From: Vicinamibacterales bacterium
GTDB lineage: Bacteria > Acidobacteriota > Vicinamibacteria > Vicinamibacterales > SCN-69-37
NCBI GenBank assembly: GCA_035547155.1
Contig: DASZVJ010000133.1
Location: 135-64,134 of the forward strand
Length of the DNA: 64,000 nt
Direction of reading: 5' to 3'
The translations under genes were made by a program, and so were the position numbers. The notes beneath the pieces were generated by a model, which saw nothing but the letters and a program-made list of their open reading frames with translations, was not told the DNA's origin and made no database searches. Shown here piece by piece: positions 2,604 to 56,090 of the stretch; the stretch's first letter is position 1, and every line of letters begins with the position of its first letter.

Positions 2604-4317
2604 GCGGCTCGTCGGTCGGCATCTTGTCGATGAGCACCGCGCGATCGGGATCCGGCGTCTCGTCGACCGTGAACGTCGCGACGACCCGGCGTCTGGGATA
2701 GCGGTCGAGGATGCCCTGGATCAGGCCTGACCCGTCCGAGCTCTCGTAGCCAATGCGGGGCAAATCGTAGGTCAGTATATAGCGCGCATCGTCGCGTTGA
2801 AGGCGGTCGTCGTAGTTGCCGAAGCCGTTGCCGACGAAGAGCGGCCGGATGCGATTGTCCAGCGCGAGGCCGTTGGCGAGCTTGCCCTGCACGATCGTTC
2901 CGGGCGGCAGCAACCGTCCGAGCGCGACCGATGCCTCGTAGTTGACGTCCGATCGATGCTGCGTCCAGCGGACGTACTCGAAGGCATTCCAGGACAGGAC
3001 GAGAATCAGCCACATGGCCGCGACGCGCGCACGCGCCGATGCGGTCGACACGAGCGATGTCGTCCAACGCGGTTTCCAAAGCTGTAGCGTCGTCCACAAC
3101 ACCGCGATGGCCGCGGCCAGACGCACGGCTATCCGGTAGGGATTCGCGTCGATGTCCGCCACGACGAGCGGCCGCAGCAAGCTGCCGGCAACGATGTACG
3201 CAAGCGGAAGAGAGATCAGCGCACGGGCAACGCGGGCGCGACCGTCCGGCTCCGGAGCTGACGCGGACGTATTCGTCCAGGCGCGTGCGGCCAGGAGCGC
3301 GGCGAGCGCGGTCAGCGCCGGAATGAACATCACATAGCGGCGCTCGTTGCTCGAGTCGTGGACGACGAGCTCGGCGAATCCGATCAGCACCCACAGCACG
3401 AGCAGACGCTCCGCAGGCTTCGCGTCGCGCCAGCGGCGGACGATGCCGGCAAGACCGATCGCGGCGGCCACGAGCACCAGCCACATGCGGCTCAGGATGC
3501 CTTCCGCGACCGGCAGCCACGACGCGCGTTCCGCGAACGCGTGAAGCGTGTACGCCGGCTTGCGCGTCACGCTCATCTGCCAGTTGTAGAAGCGATAGTC
3601 GGCCCAATGCGGCAGGACGAACAGCGTCCCGGCGATCGCGAACGTGATCGCGAGACCGGCGAGCGTCCACCAGGCCAGTCGCGTGTCCGCACGGCGATCC
3701 GGCGCGTCCGCTCGCCACGCGCGGATGATCGCGAGACCCGCATCGAGCGCGAGCGCGGCGACGAAGAACGCGGCCGCGGCTTTCGTAAACCACGCGCCAG
3801 CTGCGGCGACGCCGGCGATCGCGCCCCATCGCGCGTCACGCGATCCGCGCGCGTACGCCGCCCACGCGACGACCATCGCGGCGGTCATCGTCGATTCCAT
3901 CAGCGCCGCGCGGTTCCACATCACGAACGCGTACGTCGTGGCAAGGACCGCTGCGCCAATCGCGGCCGCTTCGCGGCCGGCGATCGTCTTCAGGCCGATG
4001 ACGAGCGCGATGATCGCCACGAGACCCGAAACGAGCGGCACGACACGCGCCTGCCAGAGGCCGACGCCGAAGGTCTCGAACGACGCGTACTCGAGCGCTG
4101 TGAAGACGGGTGCGACGAAGACGGGATTCCACGCGTCGGTGCGCCACGCGCCCCACAGCGCGCGGTTGCGCGCGTTGTGGACCCATGCGCCTTCGTCGTG
4201 CCAGACGATGCCGACCGAGTCGGCGACCGGCGGATCGGCGCGTAACCACGCCACGCGCATGAACAGCCCCACGGCGAAGATCGCCGTGAGCACGGACGCG
4301 AACGTCCGGCGGCTCAT
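2590..4317 (-). CDS. ArnT/PMT-like GT-C fold membrane glycosyltransferase (GT39/GT83-like)
   Basis: 575 aa. Many hydrophobic helices. WHDEGAW Asp-Glu motif shortly after the first TM helix, as in lipid-phosphate-sugar dependent GT-C enzymes. C-terminal soluble domain of about 120 aa. Confidence 0.75.
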   Translation of the reverse strand: MSRRTFASVLTAIFAVGLFMRVAWLRADPPVADSVGIVWHDEGAWVHNARNRALWGAWRTDAWNPVFVAPVFTALEYASFETFGVGLWQARVVPLVSGLVAIIALVIGLKTIAGREAAAIGAAVLATTYAFVMWNRAALMESTMTAAMVVAWAAYARGSRDARWGAIAGVAAAGAWFTKAAAAFFVAALALDAGLAIIRAWRADAPDRRADTRLAWWTLAGLAITFAIAGTLFVLPHWADYRFYNWQMSVTRKPAYTLHAFAERASWLPVAEGILSRMWLVLVAAAIGLAGIVRRWRDAKPAERLLVLWVLIGFAELVVHDSSNERRYVMFIPALTALAALLAARAWTNTSASAPEPDGRARVARALISLPLAYIVAGSLLRPLVVADIDANPYRIAVRLAAAIAVLWTTLQLWKPRWTTSLVSTASARARVAAMWLILVLSWNAFEYVRWTQHRSDVNYEASVALGRLLPPGTIVQGKLANGLALDNRIRPLFVGNGFGNYDDRLQRDDARYILTYDLPRIGYESSDGSGLIQGILDRYPRRRVVATFTVDETPDPDRAVLIDKMPTDEPHARD

Positions 4318-34286: not shown

Positions 34287-36419
34287 ATGGCGAAGCTCTG
34301 GACACCCCGCAGGCTGTTGCAGATCGGCCGAACCGTCGTCGATCGCATGGAGCCGATCGATCCGTTCCCGGCCGACGAGCGGCCCGATCGCAAGCTCGAC
34401 GCCGCCTGGCGTCCCGTCGTCAAGCGCCGGGCGTTCTGCGCCCTCGCGTTTCTGGCGCTGTGGGCCGTCACGCTCGAAGCCCGGCTCGTCATGCTGCAGG
34501 TGGTGCAGCACGATGCGCGGCTCGCGGAGGCGATCGCGCAGCAGGAGTCCGAGATTCGTCCCGAAGCGCCGCGCGGAGACATCCTCGATCGCGAGGGGCG
34601 CCTGATGGCGTACTCCGTCGACGCCGATTCGATCGTGGCGGATCCGTCGCTCATCAAACCGTCGGAGAAGCAGACGACGGCCGACGCGATCTGCGATGCG
34701 CTGCGCGACTGCACGCGCAAGGATCGCGAGGAGCTCGTCCGGACGCTGTCGAGCATCAAGCGGTTCGTCTATGTGCGCCGCTCGCGCACCGTCCTGCCCG
34801 ATCAGGTCGCGCGCGTCGACGCCCTCGGACTGCCCGGCATCCTGCTGCGCACCGAGCCGCGCCGCTACTATCCGTACGCCGAGCTGGCCGCGCACGTCCT
34901 TGGATTCGTCGGCCTCGACAACACGGGGCAGGCCGGCGTCGAGTACTCGTTCGATCAGGACGTGCAGGGCCAGGCGGGCCTCGCGCGCGTGCAGGTCGAC
35001 GCGCACGGCCGGCGCCTGGACACGGTCGTCGAGCGTCCGCCGGTGCCCGGCGCGGCGGTCGAGCTGACCATCGACGTCAACCTGCAGTACATCGCCGAGC
35101 GCGAGCTCAAGGCCGGCGTCGAAGCCAATCGCGCGCGCGGCGGAACGGCGCTCATCATGGATCCGCGGACGGGCGAGATCCTCGCGCTGGCGAACTACCC
35201 GACGTTCAACCCGAACATCGCGAGCCGTTTCAGCGTCGACGCGCTGCGCAATCGCGCGATCGCGGACGTCTACGAGCCGGGATCGACCTTCAAGATGGTG
35301 ACGGCGTCCGCCGCGCTCGAGAACCACATCGTCAAGCCGACGGATCTGATCGACACCAATCCCGGCTACATCGTGATTCCGGGACGCAGCAAGCCGATCT
35401 CCGACGCACATCACGGCATGGGCGTGATGCCGTTCATCGACGTCATCGCGAAGTCGAGCAATGTTGGCGCGGTGAAAGTCGGTCTGCGCACGGGCGCCGA
35501 CCTGATGACGAAGTATGTGCAGCGGTTCGGCTTTGGCCAACAGCTTGCACCCGATCTGCCCGGTGGCAGCCGCGGGCTCTGGAACGCGAACTTGACGCAA
35601 AGCGGGCTCGCGTCGGTGTCGATGGGGTATCAGATCAGCGTCACGCCGTTGCAGATGGTGACGGCGGCCAGCGCGGTCGCCAACGGCGGCACGTTGATGG
35701 AGCCGCACATCGTGCGCGCCGTGATTCGCAACGGCATGCGCGAAGCGATCGCTCCGAAGGCGCTGCACCGTGCGATCGAGCCCGACACCGCCGCCGAGCT
35801 CACGACGATGATGGAAGCCGTCGTCGAGCGTGGCACGGCGACAATGGTGAAGATCGACGGATATTCGATCGCCGGCAAGACCGGAACGGCGCATCGCATC
35901 GTCAACGGCCGCTACTCGGACTCCGAGTACAACGCGTCGTTCGTCGGCTTCATCCCGTCGCGGCGGCCGGTCTACACGATCCTCGTCGTCATCGACACGC
36001 CGCGCGCCGGCTCGTACTACGGTGGCCCGGTCGCGGGGCCCATCTTCAAGCGGATCGCGGAGGCCGCGCTGCAGTACGCCGGCGTGCCGCCGACCGTGAA
36101 TCCCGCACCACCGGTCCTCGTGCCTGCAGCGCCGGAGCCGCTGCCCGCACAGTGGCAGCGTGTGCGCGTGACGTCGCTGCCGGCGCAGCCACAGGCCGCC
36201 GACGGTCCGGCGCTCATGCCGGATCTGCGCGGCGCGAGCGGGCGTGAGGCGATGCGAACACTCGGCGCGATCGGCATGACGCCGCGCATCAGCGGATCGG
36301 GATTCGTCGTCCGGCAGTCACCGGAACCGGGTGTTCCCATCGACGCCGGCGGTCAGGCATTCGTCGAGCTGCGGCGCGACGCAGACCGCAGTTCGATCGC
36401 CGGCGAGGCCAATCCATGA
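34287..36419 (+). CDS. ftsI: Class B penicillin-binding protein FtsI/PBP3 with C-terminal PASTA domain
   Basis: 710 aa. Motifs STFK (YEPGSTFKMVT), SSN (AKSSNVG) and KTGT (IAGKTGTA). C-terminal LMPDLRGASGREAMRTLGAIGMTPRISGSGFVVRQSPEPG is PASTA-like. Confidence 0.9.
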   Translation: MAKLWTPRRLLQIGRTVVDRMEPIDPFPADERPDRKLDAAWRPVVKRRAFCALAFLALWAVTLEARLVMLQVVQHDARLAEAIAQQESEIRPEAPRGDILDREGRLMAYSVDADSIVADPSLIKPSEKQTTADAICDALRDCTRKDREELVRTLSSIKRFVYVRRSRTVLPDQVARVDALGLPGILLRTEPRRYYPYAELAAHVLGFVGLDNTGQAGVEYSFDQDVQGQAGLARVQVDAHGRRLDTVVERPPVPGAAVELTIDVNLQYIAERELKAGVEANRARGGTALIMDPRTGEILALANYPTFNPNIASRFSVDALRNRAIADVYEPGSTFKMVTASAALENHIVKPTDLIDTNPGYIVIPGRSKPISDAHHGMGVMPFIDVIAKSSNVGAVKVGLRTGADLMTKYVQRFGFGQQLAPDLPGGSRGLWNANLTQSGLASVSMGYQISVTPLQMVTAASAVANGGTLMEPHIVRAVIRNGMREAIAPKALHRAIEPDTAAELTTMMEAVVERGTATMVKIDGYSIAGKTGTAHRIVNGRYSDSEYNASFVGFIPSRRPVYTILVVIDTPRAGSYYGGPVAGPIFKRIAEAALQYAGVPPTVNPAPPVLVPAAPEPLPAQWQRVRVTSLPAQPQAADGPALMPDLRGASGREAMRTLGAIGMTPRISGSGFVVRQSPEPGVPIDAGGQAFVELRRDADRSSIAGEANP

Positions 36420-37948
36420 CGCTGGCCGAGCTGGTGGCGTCCGCGCGGACGCTCGCCGCCGATGCGCGCGCGCGGATCGAGCAGGCCGGACGCGGCGACA
36501 CGCCGGTCACCACGGTCGTGCACGACTCACGCGCGGCCTCGCGTGGCGCAGTGTTCGTCGCGATTCCGGGGCACCGCGTCGACGGCGCGCGCTTCGCCGC
36601 CGACGCGATCGCGCGTGGTGCGGTCGCGATCGTGGCGGAGACACCGGCGGCCACCGAGACCGCGGTGCCGTGGTTGACGACACCTGACGCGCGGATCGCA
36701 CTGGCGGAGCTGGCCGCGATCGTCCAGGGACATCCGAGCGAGGAGCTGACGCTCGTCGGCGTCACTGGCACCAACGGGAAGACGACGACGACCTACCTGC
36801 TCGCGTCGGTGTTCGACGCGGCGGGCATGCCGTGCGGCCGCCTCGGCACGGTGACGATGAAGGTGGGGCCGTCGCCAGCCGACGAGCGCGATGCGCTGCA
36901 TACGACGCCGGAAGCGTCGGACGTGCAGCGGCTGCTGCGAGAGATGCGGACGAAAGGCTGTCAGGCCTGCGCGATGGAAGTGTCGTCGCACGCGCTGGCG
37001 CTGCGCCGCGTCGAATATCTGCGGTTCGCGGCGGGCGTCTTCACGAACCTGACGCGCGATCACCTCGATTTCCACGGCGACATGCAGCAGTACTTCGCGG
37101 CGAAGAAGCGCCTGTTCGAGATGCTGCCGTCTGGGGCACCAGCCATCGTCAACGTCGACGATCCGCGCGGCGTCGAGCTTGCCAGCACGCTGCCGCGCGC
37201 CGTGACGTACGCCATCGACCATGCCGCCGACGTGCGTGCGTCGAACATCGAGTACACGCTCGAGGGGCTGGCGTTCGACATGCAGACGCGGGATCGTACG
37301 TTGTCGATCCGATCGCCGCTCATCGGGCGGCCGAACGTCTACAACATCCTTGCGGCCGCCGCGACGGCCATCGCGCTGGACCTGCCGGCGCACGCGATCG
37401 AGCGCGGCATCGCGGCGCTCGAGCACGTGCCTGGACGCTTCCAGATCGTTTCGACCAGCGCCGACGACGTTCGCGTCGTCGTCGACTATGCGCACACCGA
37501 CGACGCGCTGAAGAACCTGCTCGAGACGGCGCGGCCGCTGGCGGCGGGACGGTTGATCACGGTGTTCGGCTGCGGCGGCGATCGCGATCGCAGCAAGCGG
37601 CCGCTGATGGGCGCCGTCGCCGCCCGGCTGAGCGATCTGGTCGTGCTGACCTCGGACAATCCGCGATCGGAAGATCCCGTGCGGATCATCGACGAGATCG
37701 TGCGCGGGCTCGCACCGACGCCGGAGCCCGGCGCACCGAAGCGGCCGCGGACGCCGTATGTGATCGAAGTCGATCGGCGCCGCGCCATCGATCACGCGAT
37801 TCGTGTGGCCAGGCCCGGCGATCTCGTCTTGATTGCCGGCAAGGGCCACGAGACGTATCAAGTCATCGGCGATCGCACGCTGCCCTTCAGCGATGTCGAC
37901 GTCGCTCGCAGCGCGCTCGGTCATCGGCGCGCGGCTTCCAACGTGTGA
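36416..37948 (+). CDS. murE: UDP-MurNAc-L-Ala-D-Glu:meso-DAP ligase MurE
   Basis: GVTGTNGKTTT P-loop, the DNPR motif (TSDNPRSEDP) and AGKGHE. ATGA overlap with ftsI. Confidence 0.95.
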   Translation: MTLAELVASARTLAADARARIEQAGRGDTPVTTVVHDSRAASRGAVFVAIPGHRVDGARFAADAIARGAVAIVAETPAATETAVPWLTTPDARIALAELAAIVQGHPSEELTLVGVTGTNGKTTTTYLLASVFDAAGMPCGRLGTVTMKVGPSPADERDALHTTPEASDVQRLLREMRTKGCQACAMEVSSHALALRRVEYLRFAAGVFTNLTRDHLDFHGDMQQYFAAKKRLFEMLPSGAPAIVNVDDPRGVELASTLPRAVTYAIDHAADVRASNIEYTLEGLAFDMQTRDRTLSIRSPLIGRPNVYNILAAAATAIALDLPAHAIERGIAALEHVPGRFQIVSTSADDVRVVVDYAHTDDALKNLLETARPLAAGRLITVFGCGGDRDRSKRPLMGAVAARLSDLVVLTSDNPRSEDPVRIIDEIVRGLAPTPEPGAPKRPRTPYVIEVDRRRAIDHAIRVARPGDLVLIAGKGHETYQVIGDRTLPFSDVDVARSALGHRRAASNV

Positions 37949-39348
37949 CGGCCGCCGTGAGCATCGTGATCGTGACGGCAGCGCTGGTCGCCGAGGCGAC
38001 CGGAGGACGGATCGTGGCGGGCTCGGCGACGACCGTGTTCGACGGCGTGTCGACGGACACGCGAGCGAGCGCGCCGGGCACGTTGTTCGTCGCGCTGCGC
38101 GGGGAGCGGTTCGACGCACATGCGTTCCTGATGCAGGCGCTGTCCGGAGGCGCGACGGGCCTGCTCGTCGAGACGCCGCCGGCTGACGCCGCCGGCGCGA
38201 CCGTCATCGTCGTGCCGGACACGCTGCGCGCGCTGCAGGCGCTGGCGCGGACGATTCGCCGCGCGTCAGGCGCACGCGTGGTCGCGATCACCGGCAGCGC
38301 CGGCAAGACGACGACGAAGGAAGTGACGGCGAATCTGCTCGAGGCGCGGTATCGCGTGTATCGCAATCGCGGCAATCTCAACAACCACATTGGCCTGCCG
38401 CTGTCGCTGATCGAGCTGCGTCATGGGCCCGACATCGCGGTCGTCGAGCTCGGCATGAATCACGCGGGGGAGATCCGGACGCTCGTCGAGATCGCCGAGC
38501 CGGACGTGCGCGTCTGGACGAATGTCGGCGACGCGCACATCGGTCATTTCGGATCGCGCGAAGCCGTCGCCGACGCGAAGGCGGAGATTCTCGAGCGTGC
38601 GACGGCCGACACGGTCGTCGTCGCCAACGCCGACGATCCGCTCGTCATGGCGCATGTGTCGCGCGCGCGAGTCCGGCGGCTGACGTTCGGCGAATCGGCG
38701 CCCGCGAACGTGCGGGCGACTGGTGTCGTCGATCGCGGGTTCGACGGCGTCGCCGCCGATGTCTCGACGCCCGTTGGTCCGCTGCACCTGAATGTGCCGC
38801 TGCCCGGCCGCGCGCATCTTTCGAACGTGCTCGCCGCGGTGACGGTCGCCGTCGATCTGCACGTCGATCGCCAGGCGATCGAAGATCGTGTGGCCGCGCT
38901 GGCGCCGGTCGCGCGTCGAGGCGCATCGACGCGATTGGTCAACGGCGCGCGCGTGGTCGACGATTCGTACAACGCCAGTCCGGCCGCGACGATGGCCGCG
39001 CTGCGTGCGCTCGCGGCGACGCCGGCGGCCGGCCGGCGCATCGCCGTGCTCGGCGACATGCTCGAGCTGGGAGATTCATCGCGCGAGTTGCATCGCGCGT
39101 GCGGCCGTGCGGCCGCTGACGCGGGCGTCGACGTGCTCGTCGCGATTGGTGGCGACGATGCCGACGCACTTGCTGCAGGCGCGCGCGAGGGTGGGCTCGC
39201 CGGCGATCGCATCCATCGCTTCACCGACAGCCGTCAGGCCGCCGACGCGATCGCCGTGCTGATCGCGCCTGGCGATCTCGTGCTCGTCAAGGGCTCGCGC
39301 GGCACGCGCACGGATCTCGTCGTCGATCGGCTGAAGGAGGTGGCGTAG
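37945..39348 (+). CDS. murF: UDP-MurNAc-tripeptide:D-Ala-D-Ala ligase MurF
   Basis: GTGA overlap with the murE stop. [13 protein letters not shown]-loop, and [11 protein letters not shown]-like ([11 protein letters not shown]). The upstream part of the track ORF (from 36832) is out-of-frame read-through of murE. Confidence 0.9.
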
Positions 39349-40439
39349 TGCTGTACCACCTTCTACTGCCGTTCGCCGAGCGTGTGCCCGGTCTGGGCGT
39401 CGTGCGCTACATCACGTTTCGCACGGCGGCGGCGAGCCTCACGGCGCTGGCGTTGAGCCTGCTGCTCGGGCCGTGGTTGATTCGCCGGTTGCGTGCGTTC
39501 CAGATCGGACAGGTCGTGCGCCAGGACGGCCCGGCAAGCCACAAGCCGAAGGCCGGCACGCCGACGATGGGCGGCTTGCTGATCCTGACGGCGGTGTTCG
39601 TTCCGACGCTGCTGTGGGCGGATCTGAGCAACGTCTACATCTGGATCGCGGTCATTGCGACGGCGCTCTTCGGGGCGATCGGCTTCGTCGACGACTACCT
39701 GAAGGTTACGCGCCACAGCCATTACGGTCTCTTCGCGCGATACAAGTTCGCCGCGCAGATCGCCGTGGCGCTCGGGGTCGGTATCGCGCTCATGGTGCTC
39801 GCCGGTCACGACCCGCCGCTGTACAACACCCGGCTGATCCCGCCGTTCTTCAAGCGCTGGATTCCCGATCTCGGCATTGGCTATGTCGTGTTCGCGATCC
39901 TCGTGCTCGTCGGCGCGACCAACGCCGTCAATCTGACGGACGGCCTCGACGGTCTGGCGATCAGCACGTTCGCGGTGTCGGCCGCGACGTTCACGGCGCT
40001 CACGTACGTCACCGGCCATCGCGTGTTCGCGGACTACCTGCTGCTCGTGCACTTCGAGCCCGTCGGCGAGCTGACGATCTTCTGTGGCGCGCTCGTCGGC
40101 GCAAGCCTCGGCTTCCTCTGGTGGAACGCGCATCCGGCGGAGATCTTCATGGGTGACGTCGGGTCGCTCGCGCTCGGCGGCGCGCTCGGTACGGTCGCGA
40201 TTCTGATCAAGCAGGAGCTGCTGCTGCCGATCGTCGGCGGCGTGTTCGTGATGGAAGCCGCGTCCGTGATCATCCAGGTCACGTCGTTCAAGCTGACCGG
40301 CCGGCGCGTCTTCAAGATGTCGCCGATCCATCACCACTTCGAGTTGAGCGGCTGGCAGGAGCCGAAGATCATCACGCGCTTCCTGATCCTGTCGATCATC
40401 TTTGCGCTCTTCAGCCTGACCACGCTCAAGTTGAGGTGA
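39348..40439 (+). CDS. mraY: Phospho-MurNAc-pentapeptide translocase MraY
   Basis: 363 aa. Kx[20 protein letters not shown] and [10 protein letters not shown] motifs. Confidence 0.95.
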
Positions 40440-40443
40440 TGAC

Positions 40444-41832
40444 GTGAGCTTCAGCGTGGCGGGACAACACGTGGTCGTGGTCGGCGCGGCGAGGAGCGGC
40501 ATCGCCGCCGCCGTGCTGCTGCGCGAGCGCCACGCGCGCGTGACGCTCGCCGACTCTCGCACGACGCCGTTCGACGGCGCGGACGACCTGCGCGCGCGCG
40601 GTGTCGCAATCGAGCTCGGGCCGCATCGCGATGTGCTGTTCGCCGATGCCGATCTCGTCGTGCTCAGCCCGGGCGTGCCGCCGGCGCAGCCGGCGTTCGC
40701 CGCCGCGCGGCGCCGCGGCGTGCCGATCATCGGCGAGATCGAGCTCGCGTCGCGCTGGCTGACCGGACGGGTCGTGGCGATCACGGGCACGAAAGGGAAG
40801 TCCACGACGACGACGCTGACGGCGAGGATGCTGCAGGCCGGCGGCGTACGCGTCACGGCCGGCGGAAATCTCGGCACCGCGCTGAGCGCGCAAGTCGCCG
40901 AGTCGACGCCGGACTCGGTGCATGTCGTCGAAGTCAGCAGCTTCCAGCTCGAGACGACGGACCGATTCCACCCGTGGATTGCGGTGCTCGTGAACCTGTC
41001 GCCGGATCACCTCGACCGGCACGCGTCGTTCGACGAGTACGCGAGCGCCAAAGCGCGGATCTTCGCGAACCAGACGACGGCGGATTGGGCGGTCATCAAC
41101 GCCGACGATCCGGCGTCGCTCGAGCTGGCGCGCAGCGCACGTGCGCGCCGCTTCGACTTCGCGCTCGACGCGCCGATCAGCGATGGCGTCACGGTCGACG
41201 CCGGCGAGATCGTCGAGCGCCGCCGCGGTGCGAGCGCCCGTCCGCTGCTGCCCGTGTCCGCCGTGCGGTTGCCCGGACGGCACTTGCTTTCGGACGTCCT
41301 CGCGGCGTCCGCCGTTGCGTGCCTCGCGGGCGTGCCGGCGGCGGCCATGCACCGCGCGGTTGAGACGTTCGAGGGCCTCGAGCACGCGCTGCAGCGCGTC
41401 GCCGAGGTCGACGGGATTCGGTTCATCAACGACTCGAAGGCGACGAACGTCGTGTCTGCCAGGCGCGCGATCGAGAGCGTCGGTGCCGGCGTCGTGCCGA
41501 TCATCGGCGGCCGCTACAAGGGCGGTGACTTTCGCGATCTGCGCGAGGCCGTGCGTCAACACGCGCGCGGCATCGTGGCCATCGGGGAGGCGGCGGAGCT
41601 CGTCGAGCAGGCGCTCGGCGATCTCGTGCCGGTCGCGCGCGCGGCATCGATGCACGACGCCGTACGGCGCGCGTTCGATCTCGCGCCGACGGGCGGCGCC
41701 GTACTGCTCGCGCCGGCGTGCTCGAGCTTCGACATGTTCGCCGACTACGCGGCGCGCGGACGCGCGTTCGCGGAGGAGGCGCGGGCGGTGGCGGCGGACG
41801 TGCACGCGACCGCACCGGAGAAAACGCCGTGA
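40444..41832 (+). CDS. murD: UDP-MurNAc-L-Ala:D-Glu ligase MurD
   Basis: VVVVGAARSGIAAA Rossmann motif and ITGTKGKSTT P-loop. Confidence 0.95.
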   Translation: MSFSVAGQHVVVVGAARSGIAAAVLLRERHARVTLADSRTTPFDGADDLRARGVAIELGPHRDVLFADADLVVLSPGVPPAQPAFAAARRRGVPIIGEIELASRWLTGRVVAITGTKGKSTTTTLTARMLQAGGVRVTAGGNLGTALSAQVAESTPDSVHVVEVSSFQLETTDRFHPWIAVLVNLSPDHLDRHASFDEYASAKARIFANQTTADWAVINADDPASLELARSARARRFDFALDAPISDGVTVDAGEIVERRRGASARPLLPVSAVRLPGRHLLSDVLAASAVACLAGVPAAAMHRAVETFEGLEHALQRVAEVDGIRFINDSKATNVVSARRAIESVGAGVVPIIGGRYKGGDFRDLREAVRQHARGIVAIGEAAELVEQALGDLVPVARAASMHDAVRRAFDLAPTGGAVLLAPACSSFDMFADYAARGRAFAEEARAVAADVHATAPEKTP

Positions 41833-41855
41833 CGTGAGGTCATGGCAAAGGGGTT

Positions 41856-41977
41856 GAGCGGTCAGCAGTCATCAGATCGGATTCGGCGGCGAGGAGCTTG
41901 CCGCTGGGAACACAGGCCCTTCTGGCCTGTGAGGCGGGTGTCCTGGTCCAGGTCCGGCTGATGACTGTTGACCGCTC
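41856..41977 (+). ncRNA. Candidate structured RNA element or MITE-like inverted-repeat element in the murD-ftsW spacer
   Basis: The 20-nt arms GAGCGGTCAGCAGTCATCAG (41856-41875) and CTGATGACTGTTGACCGCTC (41958-41977) pair at 19 Watson-Crick positions plus 1 G-U, and only in the plus-strand RNA. They enclose three internal hairpins, including CACAGGCC-cttct-GGCCTGTG (41911-41931). Confidence 0.4.
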
Positions 41978-42113
41978 ACTCACGGCCGCGCGAGCGGCCC
42001 GGGCGACGTCAGGGTGACATCGCCCATCAGTTTCGGACGCGATCGCGCGGAGCTTTAGAGGCGGGCGATCGCGGTTGCACGGGAACGCAGACGGAAGCCG
42101 AGGTCGCCGGACG

Positions 42114-43262
42114 ATGGCACGCACGCTGAAATCGGACAAGACGCTGTTCCTGCTCACGACGCTGCTCGTCGGCGCCAGCATCGTGATGGTCTACAGCGCA
42201 TCGTCCGTCCAGGCGGCCAACAAGTTCCAGGCGTCGTACTACTTTCTCGCCAAGCAGGTCGTGTGGTCGGTGCTCGGCTTCGTGCTGATGTTCGGCGCGA
42301 TGCAGATCGACTACCACGACTACCGCCGGCCGGCCGTGATCTGGTCGCTCCTCGGCGTGACCGGCGCGCTGCTGCTGGCCGTGTTCTTCGAGCCTCGCAT
42401 CAACGGCACGCAGCGCTGGCTCTCATTCCGTTTGTTCTCGCTGCAACCGTCGGAGCTTGCCAAGCTTTCCGTCATCGTGTTCACGGCGGCCATTCTCGAG
42501 CGGCGCATGCACCGCATCGCGGATCTGGCGTACGCAGTCGCCCCGATCGCGATCGTCACGTTCGGGCTCGCGGGCCTCGTGCTGCTCGAGCCGGACTTCG
42601 GCACGGCCGTGTCGATCGTGCTGATCGCGATCGCCATGCTCTACGCGAGCGGTCTGCGCTATCGCCATCTGCTCACCGCGTTCTTCGCGATTACGCCCGC
42701 CGCGATCGCGCTCGTCGTCCTGAAGGCGTATCGCTTCAAGCGCGTGCTGGCGTTCCTCGATCCCGAAGGCACGAAGCTGGGCGACGGCTTTCAGCTCTAT
42801 CAATCGCTCATCGCGCTCGGATCGGGCGGGATGATCGGGCGCGGGCTCGGCGGCAGCATGCAGAAGCTCTTCTATCTGCCGGAAGCGCACACGGACTTCA
42901 TCTTCTCGATCATCGGTGAGGAGCTCGGCTTGATCGGCACGACGGTCATCCTCGGCGCGTTCGCGCTGCTCGCGTGGCGCGGCCTGCGCGTGGCGCTGCT
43001 CGCGCCCGATCGGTTCGGCTCGCTGCTCGCCGTCGGCATCACGATGATGATCGCCGTCCAGGCGATGTTGAACATCACCGTCGTCACCGGCCTCGCGCCG
43101 ACGAAGGGTCTGCCGCTGCCGTTCGTGAGCAACGGCGGATCGTCGCTGCTCATCAACATGGTCGCGATGGGCGTGCTGCTCAACATCTCGCAGCAGGCGT
43201 CATCGACCGTTGCCGCGACGATGAAGCGGACGGACTGGACCCTCGGCGGGCAGGAGGCATGA
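42114..43262 (+). CDS. ftsW: Peptidoglycan glycosyltransferase FtsW (SEDS family)
   Basis: Start at the ATG at 42114 (MARTLKSDKTLFLLTTLLV…). Motifs LQPSELAK, GSGG…GRGLG and LPFVSNGGSS. Confidence 0.9.
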   Translation: MARTLKSDKTLFLLTTLLVGASIVMVYSASSVQAANKFQASYYFLAKQVVWSVLGFVLMFGAMQIDYHDYRRPAVIWSLLGVTGALLLAVFFEPRINGTQRWLSFRLFSLQPSELAKLSVIVFTAAILERRMHRIADLAYAVAPIAIVTFGLAGLVLLEPDFGTAVSIVLIAIAMLYASGLRYRHLLTAFFAITPAAIALVVLKAYRFKRVLAFLDPEGTKLGDGFQLYQSLIALGSGGMIGRGLGGSMQKLFYLPEAHTDFIFSIIGEELGLIGTTVILGAFALLAWRGLRVALLAPDRFGSLLAVGITMMIAVQAMLNITVVTGLAPTKGLPLPFVSNGGSSLLINMVAMGVLLNISQQASSTVAATMKRTDWTLGGQEA

Positions 43263-43271
43263 GGACGAGGC

Positions 43272-44375
43272 ATGACGCAGGGAGCCTCGGCGCCTCAGCG
43301 GCGCCTCTCGATCGTGATCGCCGGCGGCGGCACCGGCGGACATCTCTATCCGGGCATCGCCGTCGCACGCGAGCTGCTGCGGCAGCACCCGGATGCGGAG
43401 GTGTCGTTCGCGGGGACGTCGCGCGGCCTCGAGGCGCGCGTCGTGCCGCGCGAGGGCTTCGCGCTGGATGTGATTCGCAGCGCGGGATTGAAGGGCAAGT
43501 CGTTGCGTGCGCGCGTGCGCGGCGCTGCGCTGCTGGTGCCGTCGGCGCTCGACGCGTGGCGCGTGCTGTCGCGACGATCGCCGGACGTGGTACTGGGCGT
43601 TGGCGGGTACAGCTCCGGCCCGGTCGTGCTGCTCGCAGCCTTGCGTGGCATTCCGACGATGGTGATCGAGCAGAACGCGGTGCCAGGTTTGACGAACCGC
43701 TGGCTCGCGCGCGTGGTGCGCGCGGCCGCCGTCACGTACGACGAGACACGGCGGTTCTTCGGCACGAGGGGGTTCGTTGCCGGTAATCCGGTTCGTCCCG
43801 AGTTCTTCACGGCGGTTCGCACGTCCCGGTCCGATGCCGGGCCACGGGTGCTGATTCTTGGCGGCTCCCAGGGCGCGCACGTCGTCAACGTGGCCGTTGT
43901 GGAGGCGGCGCCCGAGCTGGCGCGGCGGTGTCCTGGTCTCGAGCTCGTCCATCAGACCGGCGAGCGCGATCTGGCCGTCGTGCGGGAAGGGTATGCGCGT
44001 GCCGGTGTTGCGGCGCGGGCGGAGTCCTTTCTGGACCCGGTGGTCCGGGAAGTGATCGATGCGGACCTGGTGATCTGCCGCGCGGGCGCGACGACGCTGG
44101 CGGAGCTGGCGGCGGCGGGACGTCCGGCGGTGCTCGTGCCCTTCGGCGCGGCGACCGACGATCACCAGCGCCGCAACGCGCGCGTGCTCGCGGACGCCGG
44201 CGCCGCGGTGATCGTCGACGAGCGGGAGTTGTCGGGCGCGCGGCTTGCGGATGTCGTCGCGCCGCTGATCGCCGATCGCGCGCGGCTCGAGGCGATGAGC
44301 GCCGCGATGCGGCGACTGGCGCGCCCCGACGCTGCGGCGCGCATCGTCGAGCGGCTGTTGGAGATCGCGGCGTGA
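43272..44375 (+). CDS. murG: Lipid I:UDP-GlcNAc transferase MurG
   Basis: IAGGGTGGHLYPGIAVA, and VICRAGATTLAELAAAGRPAVLVP. Confidence 0.95.
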   Translation: MTQGASAPQRRLSIVIAGGGTGGHLYPGIAVARELLRQHPDAEVSFAGTSRGLEARVVPREGFALDVIRSAGLKGKSLRARVRGAALLVPSALDAWRVLSRRSPDVVLGVGGYSSGPVVLLAALRGIPTMVIEQNAVPGLTNRWLARVVRAAAVTYDETRRFFGTRGFVAGNPVRPEFFTAVRTSRSDAGPRVLILGGSQGAHVVNVAVVEAAPELARRCPGLELVHQTGERDLAVVREGYARAGVAARAESFLDPVVREVIDADLVICRAGATTLAELAAAGRPAVLVPFGAATDDHQRRNARVLADAGAAVIVDERELSGARLADVVAPLIADRARLEAMSAAMRRLARPDAAARIVERLLEIAA

Positions 44376-45778
44376 TGTGGCTCGGGCGCACGCGCCATCT
44401 GCACTTCGTGGGGATCGGTGGGATCGGGATGAGTGGCATCGCCGAACTGGTCGCGAACCTCGGCTACCGCGTCAGCGGATCCGATGCGCGGCGATCCGAC
44501 ATCACGGATCGGCTCGCCTCGCTCGGCGTGCGCATCGACGTCGGTCACGACGGCCGCCACGTCGCTGACGCCGACGTCGTCGTCGTGTCGTCCGCGATCG
44601 CGCCGGACAATCCGGAAATCGTCGCCGCCCGCGCGCGCCACGTGCCCGTGATCCCGCGCGCCGAGATGCTCGCCGAGCTCATGCGGCTGCGCGTCGGCAT
44701 CGCCGTGGCCGGCGCGCACGGCAAGACCACGACGACGTCGATGGTAGCGCTGATGCTGGAGCACGCCGGGCTCGATCCGACCGCGGTGATTGGCGGCCGG
44801 CTCAGCGCGTTCGGCAGCAACGCGAAGCTCGGACGCGGTCAGTACATGGTCGTCGAGGCCGACGAGAGCGATCGCTCGTTCCTCAAGCTGTCGCCGGCGC
44901 TGGCCGTCATCACCAACATCGACCGCGAGCACATGGACACGTACGGATCGTTCGATCGTCTCGTCGAGGCGTTTCGCGCCTTCGCCGATCGCGTGCCGTT
45001 CTACGGCGCGGTGGTCGCGTGCGTCGATGACGAAGCGGTCCGTGCGCTGTTGCCGTCCCTCAGCCGGCGCACGATCACGTACGGCTTCAGCGATGACGCG
45101 GATGTGCGGGGGATCGCGCCGGCCAGCGACGGGCGATCTGCATCCTGCGACGTCGTCTATCAAATTCGCGGCGTGCCCGACGGCACCGGACGCGGACGAA
45201 TCGCGCTCAGCGTGCCGGGCCGGCACAACCTGCAGAACGCGCTTGCCGCCGCAGCGATCGGGCTCGAGATCGGCGTGCGGTTCGACGAGATCCAATCGGC
45301 GCTCGCGGACTTCCGCGGCGCCGAGCGCCGGTATCAGGTGCGAGGCGCGGTCGCTGGCGTCACGGTCGTCGACGACTACGGTCATCATCCGACGGAGATC
45401 GCGGCGGTCTTGCGCGCCGCGCGTGACGGCCGTCCGGGACGGCTGGTCGTCGTCTTTCAACCGCATCGCTTCAGCCGCACGCGCGATCTGCTCGACGCGT
45501 TCGGACCCGCGCTGAGCGGTGCGGATGTCGTCGTGCTCACCGACATCTATGCCGCCGGCGAGGCGCCAATCGATGGCGTCACCGTCGACGCGCTCGCGCG
45601 CGCGATCGAGCCGCACGTGAAGCGGCTCGTCGTCGCGCGCAGCCTGGACGCCGTGCCTGATGTCGTCGCATCCGACGCACGCGCCGGCGATTTGGTGATC
45701 ACGCTCGGCGCGGGATCGATCGCGGCCGCGGCGCCTCGCATTCTCGACGCGCTGTCTCGACGGGAGGCCCGCGCATGA
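44375..45778 (+). CDS. murC: UDP-MurNAc:L-Ala ligase MurC
   Basis: The ATG at 44375 overlaps the murG TGA by 1 nt. HFVGIGGIGMSGIAE, and VAGAHGKTTTTSM P-loop. Confidence 0.95.
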   Translation: MWLGRTRHLHFVGIGGIGMSGIAELVANLGYRVSGSDARRSDITDRLASLGVRIDVGHDGRHVADADVVVVSSAIAPDNPEIVAARARHVPVIPRAEMLAELMRLRVGIAVAGAHGKTTTTSMVALMLEHAGLDPTAVIGGRLSAFGSNAKLGRGQYMVVEADESDRSFLKLSPALAVITNIDREHMDTYGSFDRLVEAFRAFADRVPFYGAVVACVDDEAVRALLPSLSRRTITYGFSDDADVRGIAPASDGRSASCDVVYQIRGVPDGTGRGRIALSVPGRHNLQNALAAAAIGLEIGVRFDEIQSALADFRGAERRYQVRGAVAGVTVVDDYGHHPTEIAAVLRAARDGRPGRLVVVFQPHRFSRTRDLLDAFGPALSGADVVVLTDIYAAGEAPIDGVTVDALARAIEPHVKRLVVARSLDAVPDVVASDARAGDLVITLGAGSIAAAAPRILDALSRREARA

Positions 45779-46644
45779 GCCGCGATCACGCCGCACGCCG
45801 CGGTCTGCCGACGCCGGGCGTCGCGATGCCCGCCGACCGGCGCTTTCACCGTGCGGATGGATCCGCAGGCCGGCGCCGGCGCTACGGCCGCCTGACCACG
45901 CGTCTGGTGCGGTGGGGCGTCGTCACGCTCGTCGTAGCCGGCATCTGCGCGTGGCTCGGAACGCTCGTGCTCCACAGCGAGCTCCTGCGCATCCGGCGTC
46001 TGGTCGTGCACGGCAATGCGCATCTTTCGACGGGCGACGTCGAGTCGATTCTCGACGGCATCCACCGCGAGAACCTGCTGCAGGCCGATCTGCCCGCGTA
46101 TCGCCAGCGTCTGCTGGACTCGCCGTGGGTCGCCGACGTGCGGCTGTCGCGCGTGCTGCCGGCCACGCTCGACATCACCGTCGTCGAGCGCGTGCCGATG
46201 GCCGTCGCGCGTCAGGGCGACCGGTTGTTCCTCGTCGACGACGACGGCGTGATCATCGACGACTACGGCCCCGAATACGCGCAGTTCGACCTGCCCGTCG
46301 TCGACGGATTGCTCGTCGCGTCGAAGGCCGGTGCGCCGGCCGTGCCGGCGGAGCGCGCCAGGCTCGCCGACGATCTGCTGACGGCGTTGGGCGCGCGTCC
46401 GGACCTGCGCAAGCGCGTCTCGCAGATCGACGTGTCCAACGCCCACGATGCGGTCGTCCTGTTCGACGACGACCCCGCGTGGCTGCACCTCGGTGACGCG
46501 CGATTCGTCGAGCGTCTTCAGAACTACATCGACTTGAGGCCGCGGTTGATCGAGCGGTTTCGCGACATCGACTACGTCGATCTCCGATTCGACGAGCGGG
46601 TGTACTTGCGCGGGCCGGCGAAGACCGTCGCGGCGAGACACTGA
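45775..46644 (+). CDS. ftsQ: Cell division protein FtsQ (POTRA domain)
   Basis: ATGA overlap with murC. One TM (WGVVTLVVAGICAWLGTLVL), then POTRA-like IRRLVVHGNAHLSTGDV…WVADVRLSRVLPATLDITVVER. Confidence 0.8.
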   Translation: MSRDHAARRGLPTPGVAMPADRRFHRADGSAGRRRRYGRLTTRLVRWGVVTLVVAGICAWLGTLVLHSELLRIRRLVVHGNAHLSTGDVESILDGIHRENLLQADLPAYRQRLLDSPWVADVRLSRVLPATLDITVVERVPMAVARQGDRLFLVDDDGVIIDDYGPEYAQFDLPVVDGLLVASKAGAPAVPAERARLADDLLTALGARPDLRKRVSQIDVSNAHDAVVLFDDDPAWLHLGDARFVERLQNYIDLRPRLIERFRDIDYVDLRFDERVYLRGPAKTVAARH

Positions 46645-46668: not shown

Positions 46669-47907
46669 ATGGGTATGGCGCGGAGAGAACGATATCTGGT
46701 GGGGCTCGACGTGGGGACCGCCGCCGTGACGGTCATCGTCGGCGAGGTGATGGATGACGGCACGCTGGACATCATCGGCATCGGCATGGCCGAGTCGAAG
46801 GGCATCCGGCGCGGCATCGTCAACAACGTCGACTCGGCGGCCGAGGCGATCAAGCGCGCGCTCGACGAAGCCGAGCTGACCGCTGGCGTCGAGATCGACA
46901 ACGTCCATCTCGCGTTGTCCGGGGCCCACGTGAAAGCGTTCAACAGCCGCGGCGTCGTCGCAGTCGCGGGCCGCAATCGCGAGATCACGCGCGAGGACGT
47001 CAAGCGCGCGATCGACGCGGCGCGCGCGGTCGCGCTGCCGGGCGGGCGCGAGATCCTCCACGTCCTGCCGCAGGACTTCGTCGTCGACGACGTCGACGGC
47101 GTGCCATCGCCGGTGGGCATGACGGGCAGCCGTCTCGAGGTGAACGTGCACGTCGTCACCGGCAGCTCGTCGTCGATGCAGAACATGATCGCGTGCGTCA
47201 ACCGCGCGGGCGTCGAAGTCGTCGATACGGTGCTCGAGCAGCTGGCGGCGAGCGAGGCCGTGCTCACTGACGATGAGCGCAACCTCGGCGTGTGCCTCGT
47301 CGACATCGGCGGCGGCACGACGGACTTCGCGATCTTCGAGCGCGGCAGCCTGTGGCACACGGGCGTGCTCGCGATCGGCGGCGATCACTTCACGAACGAC
47401 ATCGCCGTCGGCCTGCGCATGCCGATCCCCGACGCGGAGAAGCTGAAGCGTCGATCCGGCTGCGCGTTGACGTCGCTCGTGGCCGAAGACGACACGATGG
47501 AAGTCGTCAGCATCGCCGGCCGGCGCGCGCGCGTGATGCCGCGACGGGTGCTGTCGGAGATCCTGCAGCCGCGTGCGGAAGAGATCTGCCACTTGCTTTG
47601 GGATGAGATCCGCCGCGCCGGGTACGAGAAGTCGCTGAACTCCGGCATGGTGCTCACGGGCGGCGGCGCGCTGCTGGAAGGGATGACGGAAATCGCGGAG
47701 CAGATCTTCGCGATGCCCGTTCGTCGCGCTGCACCGGAAGGCATCGGCGGCTTGGCCGATCACGTCAACAGCCCGGCGTTCGCGACGCCGGTCGGCATCG
47801 TCACGTATGCGCATGGGCGCATGCAGGCCGAACCGGTGGCCGTCGGTCCAAGCGTGCTGGGCCGGCTGATCGGCCAGTTTGGAACCTTGTTCAAAGAGTT
47901 TTTCTGA
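46669..47907 (+). CDS. ftsA: Cell division protein FtsA
   Basis: 412 aa. Actin-fold motifs [24 protein letters not shown] and [10 protein letters not shown]. Confidence 0.95.
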
Positions 47908-56014: not shown

Positions 56015-56090
56015 TGGTGGGCCCCCCAGGATTCGAACCTGGGACCAACCGGTTATGAGCCGGCAGCTCTCACCGCTGAGCTAGGGGCCC
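56015..56090 (-). tRNA. tRNA with CAT anticodon (elongator tRNA-Met, or tRNA-Ile2 if lysidinylated), CCA encoded
   Basis: The reverse complement reads GGGCCCC-TA-GCTC-AGCGGTGA-GAGC-T-GCCGG-CTCATAA-CCGGT-TGGTC-CCAGG-TTCGAAT-CCTGG-GGGGCCC-A-CCA. This is a perfect 76-nt cloverleaf. G1-C72 is paired and there is no GGG/CCC anticodon stem, so it is not an initiator. Confidence 0.9.

Follow-up and report, generated by a model that had tools for sequence, protein, structure and literature searches.

The sequence between murD and ftsW in the division and cell wall (dcw) gene cluster of a Vicinamibacterales bacterium (SCN-69-37) was analyzed and found to harbor a conserved hairpin RNA, here called the murD-ftsW element. 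The analyzed stretch of DNA, referred to below as the window, spans 64,000 nt (GCA_035547155.1, contig DASZVJ010000133.1, positions 135-64,134 of the forward strand), and the element occupies 122 nt of the 281-nt gap between the two genes (41833-42113). Judged from alignments of approximately 190 sequences, the element represents a new class-wide structured RNA family of the Vicinamibacteria (Acidobacteriota subgroup 6) that is absent from Rfam. The orphan structured RNAs would thereby gain a well-supported family, in which 39 of 50 base pairs covary. The interruption of the dcw cluster by a class-wide RNA points to unrecognized post-transcriptional control acting between the divisome (ftsW to ftsZ) and the mur genes of peptidoglycan precursor synthesis. 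As to its function, a processing or stability site, or a processed RNA, is somewhat favored by the data.

The dcw cluster is among the most conserved gene arrays of bacteria and its genes are usually packed end to end. Gene calls obtained from NCBIfam profile matches to the open reading frames (ORFs) of the window yielded the order ftsI, murE, murF, mraY, murD, ftsW, murG, murC, ftsQ, ftsA and ftsZ. They bore out the starting observation of an earlier inspection of the same DNA (the sequence-only reading), namely that a non-coding gap of 281 nt separates murD and ftsW in a tightly packed cluster: at the remaining nine placeable junctions, from ftsI/murE to ftsA/ftsZ, the genes either overlap by 1-4 nt or are at most 24 nt apart.

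Fold, covariation and strand of the element

Two sets of homologous loci were used. For the first set, one genome per species (GTDB representatives) was scanned for the 20-mer GAGCGGTCARCAGTCATCAG, an exact arm being required. The second, unbiased set consisted of metagenome contigs that were picked solely by FtsW protein alignment (A3) and comprised 80 loci, whose FtsW proteins are 52-61% identical to that of the window. The unbiased-set alignment was fitted to a covariance model, and a MAFFT-based alignment of 111 elements (A2) served as an independent check. The conserved fold is a single long irregular hairpin, composed of the helices P1, P1b, P2 and P3, an 8/1 internal loop (GCUGGGAA/A) and the terminal helix P4. 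The covariance-model match with short flanks covers 41848-41985, and the parts of the fold map onto the window as follows.

41856-41977, plus strand: murD-ftsW element, 122-nt RNA hairpin (covariance model R1, 118.6 bits; homologues; covariation)
41856-41875, plus strand: 5' strand of P1, GAGCGGTCAGCAGTCATCAG, pairing with 41958-41977
41958-41977, plus strand: 3' strand of P1, CTGATGACTGTTGACCGCTC (given also as CUGAUGACUGUUGACCGCUC)
41878-41881, plus strand: 5' strand of P1b, CGGA, pairing with UCCG at 41953-41956; the homologous helix covaries (columns 31-34 with 123-126)
41886-41895 with 41941-41949, plus strand: P2, from covariation and mapping onto the window
41896-41902 with 41933-41939, plus strand: P3, from covariation and mapping onto the window
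41903-41910 opposite the lone A41932, plus strand: 8/1 internal loop, GCUGGGAA, from invariant columns in A2 and the consensus of the unbiased set
41911-41918 with 41924-41931, plus strand: P4 terminal hairpin, CACAGGCC, loop CUUCU, GGCCUGUG
41933-41949, plus strand: 3' strands of P3 and P2, GGCGGGU, G, UCCUGGUCC

Covariation, which the sequence-only reading had named as a check, was assessed by pair counting with slid and shuffled controls and proved strong. RNAalifold applied to A2 returned a long irregular hairpin of 44 pairs, 23 of them with compensatory changes; the refined structure has 50 pairs. In the first set, compensatory changes were found at 23 of these 50 pairs and 95.9% of the alignment cells were paired, versus 29-43% when the partners were slid by 1-3 columns. 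The unbiased set showed compensatory changes at 39/50 pairs, with 94.7% of the cells paired versus 26-51% in the slid controls. None of 500 shuffles reached the observed pairing. Counted by helix, compensatory changes in the unbiased set affect 18/26 pairs in the outer stem (P1 and P1b), 13/15 in P2 and P3, and 8/9 in P4. Over approximately 190 sequences, the invariant positions are the P1 run GUC.UCAG with its partner CUGA.GAC, plus the loop GCUGGGAA, which is the nearly invariant and most conserved unpaired part of the element. The P4 loop is pyrimidine-rich among the relatives seen.

The outer stem corresponds to the 20-bp helix with a single plus-strand G-U pair that the sequence-only reading had placed at 41856-41875/41958-41977; the sole G·U of P1 in the window is G41865·U41968. 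Its two strands form a 20-nt inverted repeat around 82 nt, and two arm matches were found where 0.01 were expected from shuffles. The sequence GAGCGGUGAGCAGUCRUCAG forms the 5' strand of P1 in most relatives; its position 8 takes part in a G·G mismatch, which is replaced by a C-G pair in the window. P1 and P1b together provide 24-26 bp of mostly regular duplex with one mismatch or bulge, a length that corresponds to the roughly two helical turns of an RNase III substrate.

The interior of the hairpin differs in part from what had been proposed from the single sequence. Of three predicted inner hairpins, CACAGGCC/GGCCTGTG (41911-41918/41924-41931) is backed by the relatives as P4. The other two, CGGCGGC/GCCGCUG and CCUG/CAGG, are paired in 68% across relatives, a value matched by 211 of 500 column shuffles, and the long-range helices P2 and P3 take their place. 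The minimum free energy (MFE) structure of the window sequence (-82.2 kcal/mol) contains the three inner hairpins, while the fold with P2 and P3 lies 1 kcal/mol higher at -81.2 kcal/mol.

The sequence-only reading had also argued from strand-specific wobble pairs that the element functions as RNA, and this argument held across approximately 190 homologues. In the unbiased set, G·U cells outnumber A·C cells by 430 to 80. All 77 sequences compared reached a lower MFE in sense than in antisense orientation (means of -83.7 and -68.7 kcal/mol), and R1 scores the window with 118.6 bits in sense and 35.8 bits in antisense orientation. Given the excess of G·U pairs and the better folding of the sense strand, the comparative data assign the element to the sense strand, as an RNA structure within the dcw transcript. 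An element acting at the DNA level, such as a cruciform or a protein-binding palindrome, would find support in the window itself, where the complete spacer is much more stably folded than its dinucleotide shuffles, with similar z-scores for the plus strand (-5.3) and the minus strand (-5.5). Such an element is nevertheless highly improbable, as the 430 G·U cells would turn into A·C mismatches in the antisense strand, and folding of the sense strand is favored by 15 kcal/mol on average. Moreover, pairing is kept while helix lengths and loops vary, and the region is transcribed.

Synteny, copy number and stand-alone copies

The arm 20-mer GAGCGGTCARCAGTCATCAG occurs in at least 119 stretches. 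Among the 119 listed, 116 carry it between murD and ftsW in sense orientation, as determined by tblastn with the MurD and FtsW proteins of the window, to which the MurD and FtsW proteins of arm-bearing loci are only approximately 50-76% identical. Of the 80 loci in the unbiased set, 75 gave a sense-strand R1 match ahead of ftsW, and the five loci without a match all have less than 260 nt of upstream sequence. The exact 3'-arm 20-mer was kept in just 16/70 sequences of this set. The murD-ftsW site accounts for 98% of the sampled instances, and the spacer length across the murD-ftsW loci ranges from 155 to 617 nt. Approximately 15 complete chromosomes each appear once among the 20-mer matches, each 8-kb locus contains one copy, and a second copy of the arm or of the element was not found in the 64-kb window. 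The element is syntenic, single-copy and more conserved than the adjoining essential genes, which is the opposite of a mobile repeat.

These data also bear on the main alternative of the sequence-only reading, a miniature inverted-repeat transposable element (MITE) with 20-nt terminal inverted repeats that has inserted into the dcw cluster. The inverted repeat around 82 nt is in line with a MITE, as are the contigs that break inside the element and a few copies elsewhere in two metagenome-assembled genomes (MAGs). Yet the 20-nt arms covary as an RNA helix with G·U pairs, and compensatory changes preserve inner helices for which a DNA transposon has no need. In addition, the element keeps the same site and orientation where the flanking proteins are just 50-60% identical, no target-site duplication is present at its flanks (GGGGTT/ACTCAC), and the copy numbers given above are those of a single-copy locus. 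As far as the present data reach, the MITE alternative fails and retains almost no probability. As to the contig breaks, three of seven contigs (L003, L004 and L007) end inside the element, at approximately 41959-41989, and Logan unitigs break at 41855-41884 in the left arm. Taking these breaks as a sign of repetition was rejected, since they are better explained by element k-mers that are common to co-occurring species and fragment the assemblies.

Two further apparent duplications were traced to sequence artefacts. A second match on one contig (L154:2770-2913, 41 bits) falls into a contig end that is a long perfect palindrome and scores merely as a long hairpin, which calls for caution in scans with a hairpin covariance model. 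At L042:2017-2257 the 3' arm occurs twice on the same strand and flanks a run of N, which represents a scaffolding duplication and not a tandem element.

The exact FtsW protein of the window is also encoded on JGI and Logan soil-metagenome contigs, and the spacer is identical wherever it is covered. The nearest named relatives are Vicinamibacterales and Acidobacteriota MAGs, and the best 120 FtsW homologue matches are all from uncultured organisms. Very few members of the Vicinamibacteria have been cultured. The present analysis encountered this poorly studied class in numerous data sets from soil, rhizosphere, groundwater and sediment. The hairpin could serve as a Vicinamibacteria-specific marker in metagenomes and metatranscriptomes. 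Vicinamibacteria-type murD-hairpin-ftsW loci were also found in MAGs labelled as other taxa, namely Bifidobacteriaceae/Bifidobacterium (L022, L035, L046, L075 and L095), Betaproteobacteria (L011), Acidimicrobiia (L078) and Solibacteraceae (L010 and L100). These are probably mis-binned or mislabelled contigs.

Three copies of the hairpin have no dcw gene within 8 kb (L018:224-361, plus strand; L055:5618-5755, minus strand; L117:3368-3505, minus strand). L055 and L117 belong to the same MAG (MFD05521.bin.2.215), on separate contigs, and L018, which belongs to another species, has approximately 100 nt of upstream context in common with L055. The neighbors of the stand-alone copies are mutually unrelated and include tRNA genes (tRNA-Lys and tRNA-Arg next to the L055 copy), a PEP-CTERM protein and a MacB/FtsX-type permease. 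The unit common to the stand-alone and the dcw copies has sharp borders and extends from the base of P1 to approximately 20 nt beyond it (...ACGGCGAUCUUAGUC...). The stand-alone copies score lower, at 101-114 bits, and two carry mismatches in P4; they may be decaying duplicates. Their existence indicates that the hairpin can persist outside the operon, which favors a self-contained function. A conserved tail, ACGGCGATC[C/G/T]TAG, was noticed after P1 in a large subgroup of loci (e.g. L041, L056, L069 and L085) as well as in the stand-alone copies; the window has ACTCACGGCCGC instead.

Transcripts, flanking signals and possible functions

Metatranscriptome runs were examined as contigs or unitigs and not as reads, which means that the depths are rough values summed over many species and possibly over DNA as well. 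At least 18 metatranscriptome runs from soil, rhizosphere and sediment contained 31-mers of L057, a member close to the consensus. Single unitigs link the 3' end of murD to the hairpin in two runs (X37 and X40), several runs show equal depth over both, and the hairpin is co-transcribed with murD. One X40 contig links the hairpin to ftsW at a depth of 2.9 versus 8.9. The window's own strain is represented by only two low-depth RNA contigs, which span the junctions of the hairpin with the murD 3' end and with ftsW, respectively. A different picture was obtained for X30, a 118-Mb library, in which hairpin-confined contigs reach a depth of up to 73 and 13% extend into the flanks. In this library the Illumina adapter is fused to G13 of the 5' arm (L057 position 4124) in two different variant unitigs, and one contig ends with CUGAUGACUGC followed by the adapter, after C11 of the 3' arm (position 4223). 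Taken together, these ends describe an insert of approximately 100 nt that is staggered within P1 and has a 3-nt 3' overhang. The staggered ends hint at processing and are a lead rather than proof.

The position of the element relative to its neighbors was analyzed next to these data. The genes of the cluster are located in the window as follows.

36416-37948: murE (NCBIfam)
37945-39348: murF (NCBIfam)
39348-40439: mraY (NCBIfam)
40444-41832, plus strand: murD, UDP-N-acetylmuramoyl-L-alanine--D-glutamate ligase (NCBIfam TIGR01087, 407.6 bits)
42114-43262, plus strand: ftsW (NCBIfam TIGR02614, 380 bits; start conserved)
43272-44375: murG (NCBIfam)
44372-45778: murC (NCBIfam)
45775-46644: ftsQ (NCBIfam)
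46669-47907: ftsA (NCBIfam)

The murD stop codon of the window is a TGA located 23 nt 5' of the hairpin. Among 162 loci, 69 (43%) have the murD stop codon within the 5' arm, 50 of them as the UGA of GG-UGA-GCAG; the overlap is at most 9 nt, with one locus scored 28, and in loci without arm overlap the stop is found 3-218 nt upstream. The distance between the 3' arm and the ftsW AUG varies from 14 to 382 nt and the sequence between them is unrelated. The FtsW N-terminus reads MARTLKSDK in the window versus MARKLKSDK in most relatives, and a Shine-Dalgarno-like tetramer, GAGG, precedes ftsW at 42100-42103. The variable spacing to both genes suggests that the hairpin is a self-contained module whose action is independent of the exact distance to translation signals. 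Only 14-24 nt separate the end of the hairpin from the ftsW AUG in five species (L050, L076, L077, L127 and L141), which leaves no room for a promoter and implies that ftsW is transcribed through the hairpin. No position from -70 to -3 relative to the start of the 5' arm exceeded 0.35 bits across loci in the search for an upstream promoter. A U-tract was not found after P1, where the sequence continues with CAC(G)..., the terminator scan of the spacer was negative, and no helix that covers the ftsW ribosome-binding site (RBS) is conserved together with the hairpin. An upstream ORF was not found either, as the AUG within CUGAUGA is often ACG or GCG in relatives and the downstream frames are inconsistent. 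The candidate reading frame from the 3'-arm AUG (MT[A/V]DRS...) was rejected, since its AUG is lost in many relatives and its stop positions vary. A separate peculiarity of the cluster is that murC runs straight into ftsQ, murB and ddl being absent from their usual place between the two.

We tentatively read the element, with somewhat less than even confidence, as a module of the dcw mRNA that is recognized for processing or stability and from which a stable RNA of approximately 100 nt may be released. According to this model, a trans factor would recognize the self-contained hairpin, most likely a double-strand-specific endonuclease of the RNase III type and/or a binding protein that acts on the invariant middle of P1 and the GCUGGGAA loop. 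Cleavage of P1 would separate the mraZ-murD message from the ftsW-ftsZ message, set their relative stability and leave behind the stable hairpin RNA. The invariant parts of P1 and the invariant 8-nt loop point to sequence-specific recognition, beyond mere stability.

Several observations weigh against this processing model. A plain stability or processing hairpin needs no invariant loop, and the loop may thus signify a ligand or a specific protein partner. The X30 ends come from one small library, in which some may be PCR duplicates, and their overhang measures 3 nt where RNase III typically leaves 2 nt. The adapter junction in another run (X44) lies elsewhere, at C15 of the 3' arm. The drop in depth from murD and the hairpin to ftsW is not quantitative, given mixed species and possible DNA. 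Finally, a trans-acting RNA accounts for the stand-alone copies no less well than a cis-acting module does.

Such a trans-acting small RNA (sRNA) would consist of the hairpin and an approximately 20-nt 3' tail, be cut from the dcw transcript, and act on other targets or titrate a protein; its location would serve only to couple its synthesis to that of the cell-wall and division genes. We consider this possible but doubtful. Copies outside the dcw cluster speak for it, one of their loci being common to two species and the hairpin there being more conserved than its flanks, and the sharply bordered duplicated unit runs from the P1 base to approximately +20 nt. The flexible spacing to both neighboring genes, the short hairpin-only RNAs at notable depth in X30 together with the 31-mers in at least 18 runs, and the precedent of UpsM, an sRNA from a dcw 5' leader (PMC5089854), point in the same direction. 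On the other hand, 98% of the instances sit at one syntenic site without a promoter or terminator of their own, the stand-alone copies are low-scoring and, with P4 mismatches in two of them, perhaps decaying. There is also no evident single-stranded seed besides the 8-nt loop, and several runs place the hairpin and the murD 3' end in one unitig at equal depth.

The internal loop raises a further alternative, a riboswitch-like or protein-dependent attenuator in which the loop binds a metabolite (e.g. a peptidoglycan precursor) or a protein and alters read-through or translation of ftsW-murG-murC-ftsQAZ. The element does possess a covarying, aptamer-like fold with conserved unpaired nucleotides, which constitutes one part of the riboswitch definition. 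The highly conserved asymmetric loop is set in a rod-like structure, which in nearly all cases precedes ftsW and shares its orientation. An alternative fold of the interior differs from the conserved one by no more than 1 kcal/mol in the window, and its core can always be formed by the invariant GCG/CGC. However, this alternative hairpin does not covary, the 26-bp outer stem is far too stable for a switching helix, and a conserved expression platform is lacking, with no U-tract, no RBS helix and an AUG distance of 14-382 nt. Considering also that the 5' arm overlaps the murD stop in 43% of loci and that the genes after the stand-alone copies are unrelated, an attenuator appears rather unlikely. 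A related proposal combines sensing with processing: the GCUGGGAA/A loop would be the sensor of a cell-wall precursor or division signal, either as a riboswitch-like pocket or as the site of a regulator, and would gate P1 cleavage or read-through, thereby determining the amount of ftsW-ftsZ message relative to mur message. This is unlikely; if true, the element would act as a checkpoint made of RNA that links the supply of peptidoglycan precursors to septation, and it would be a first riboswitch class for a peptidoglycan intermediate.

The spacer contains a second conserved module, a bipartite motif located between the hairpin and ftsW. It is listed here together with the remaining features of the spacer downstream of the hairpin.

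42031-42036, 16 nt, 42053 and 42054-42059, plus strand: bipartite motif TTTCGG, 16 nt, C, TTTAGA, the second conserved spacer module
41984-41999, plus strand: GC-rich hairpin GGCCGC/GCGGCC, species-specific
42001-42006 with 42020-42025, plus strand: GC-rich hairpin GGGCGA/TCGCCC, species-specific, unconserved
42038-42046 with 42065-42073: downstream stem CGCGATCGC/GCGATCGCG, unconserved in relatives

The motif has the consensus TNTCGG-N16-C-T[T/G]TA[G/T]N, with 17 nt between the hexamers, and was found between hairpin and ftsW in 144 loci. The 17-nt spacing is exact in 87 of 87 first-set matches, and the motif is present in 48/67 of the unbiased set. Its distance to the ftsW ATG ranges from 1 to 171 nt without a preferred value and is at most 4 nt in 15 loci. 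The motif is absent from the three stand-alone copies and from the five species in which the hairpin abuts ftsW. Such constant spacing suggests that the motif is recognized as DNA and serves as a promoter or operator; a simple -10 box for ftsW is difficult to reconcile with distances as short as 1-4 nt to the ATG. A general promoter consensus was rejected, as the motif occurs once in 64 kb and can sit 1-4 nt from the ATG. An RNA structure was dismissed at an alifold energy of 0, and a micro-ORF across Box 1 and Box 2 of the motif was discarded on the grounds that its frame is inconsistent with the fixed 17-nt spacing.

If the motif were a promoter (TNTCGG-N17-TKTAGN) from which ftsW-ftsZ is transcribed, the hairpin could mark the end of an operon, as a U-less terminator or as a protector of the mraZ-murD 3' end. 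In favor of this view, the invariant 17-nt spacing resembles that of -35 and -10 boxes, the motif is unstructured and lies between hairpin and ftsW in the 144 loci, and the cross-species depth in several metatranscriptomes is higher on the murD 3' end and the hairpin than on the ftsW 5' end. An operon end is still quite unlikely, since in at least five species the hairpin abuts the ftsW RBS without the motif, which forces read-through. The boxes are unlike TTGACA/TATAAT and the motif is found once in 64 kb, while its distance to the ATG is continuous and, at 4 nt or less in 15 loci, too short for a -10 box. Furthermore, no U-tract follows P1 and one contig joins the hairpin to ftsW.

Two stems downstream of the hairpin had been described in the sequence-only reading. 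Both, GGGCGA/TCGCCC and CGCGATCGC/GCGATCGCG, are present in the window at slightly different coordinates, and neither is conserved in relatives. Short tandem repeats (GGTCGCTGGTCACTGGTAGCTGGTC, GGCTGATGGCTGATGG and GAGGGTGCGAGGGTGC) were noticed in some spacers, downstream of the hairpin in L097 and upstream of it in L054, L080 and L164. Other spacers contain small GC-rich hairpins with TTTA or TTCA loops (e.g. GGGTCTTTAGACCC and GTCCGGCTTCAGCCGGAC), which resemble a dispersed REP-like family.

Comparison with known RNA families

A scan of the whole window with Rfam 15 at the gathering score yielded a tRNA as the sole match (56018-56090, minus strand). For the spacer, searched at E values of up to 10, only a chance match to snoZ206 was obtained (16.7 bits versus a cut-off of 50). 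The Rfam search that had been suggested in the sequence-only reading thus ended with no known family matching the spacer, hammerhead, 6S, SRP, mraW, Acido-1 and Acido-Lenti-1 included, and literature searches found no description of the murD-ftsW element. Several known motifs were also considered. CUGAUGA in P1 is reminiscent of a hammerhead core, but it is paired with UCAUCAG in a covarying helix, becomes CUGACGA or CUGGCGA in relatives, has no three-way junction and gives no Rfam match. A C/D box was rejected for the same heptamer, which is paired and not invariant. Placing the GCUGGGAA/A loop in the register of a kink-turn breaks the covarying columns 74/95 (hand check on A2). A pseudoknot between the loop sequence GGGAA and GUUUC of Box 1 shows no covariation and would involve C73, which is already paired. 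Pairing of the loop GGG with the pyrimidine-rich P4 loop is sterically implausible for a 3-5-nt loop on a 9-bp stem.

Intercistronic hairpins that serve as RNase III or stability sites are known from the rplL-rpoB spacer, the early RNA sites of phage T7 and the puf operon. As a matter of general knowledge, they share with the murD-ftsW element an irregular duplex of at least 20 bp in a spacer that interrupts an operon, and they would uncouple the stability of upstream and downstream messages. They differ in that class-wide invariant loops are not known there; in the present case the overhang is 3 nt and cleavage is putative.

The NAD+-I and xanthine (NMT1) riboswitches are rod-like aptamers with a conserved asymmetric internal loop. 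The NAD+-I (nadA) motif is specific to Acidobacteria (PMC6859854). These rod-shaped aptamers lie in 5' untranslated regions, have a recognizable expression platform and are followed by genes that point to the ligand. The murD-ftsW element differs by having no platform and variable distances, overlapping the upstream stop codon and implying no ligand.

By context, the nearest counterparts are two dcw-associated RNAs of other lineages, to neither of which the murD-ftsW element shows a relationship in sequence or fold. In the Actinomycetales, the mraW RNA motif (RF01746) precedes the second dcw gene, mraW or rsmH (Weinberg et al. 2010, PMC2864571). It is likewise a taxon-restricted candidate cis-regulatory RNA of the dcw cluster that emerged from comparative genomics (PMC2864571), but the spacer has no Rfam 15 match to it, even at E = 10. 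In Rhodobacteraceae, the long 5' leader of the cluster gives rise to the sRNA UpsM (Weber et al. 2016, PMC5089854). This sRNA is cut by RNase E with the help of Hfq, and its authors proposed linked roles in cis and in trans (PMC5089854). UpsM is located upstream of mraZ and ends in a Rho-independent terminator, whereas the murD-ftsW element, from another phylum, occupies a mid-operon position, lacks a terminator and consists of one long hairpin, and the Rfam scan detected no sequence or covariance-model similarity between the two. What the murD-ftsW element has in common with UpsM is that a lineage-restricted structured RNA is part of the dcw transcript and, in the present case putatively, can exist as a separate small RNA (PMC5089854).

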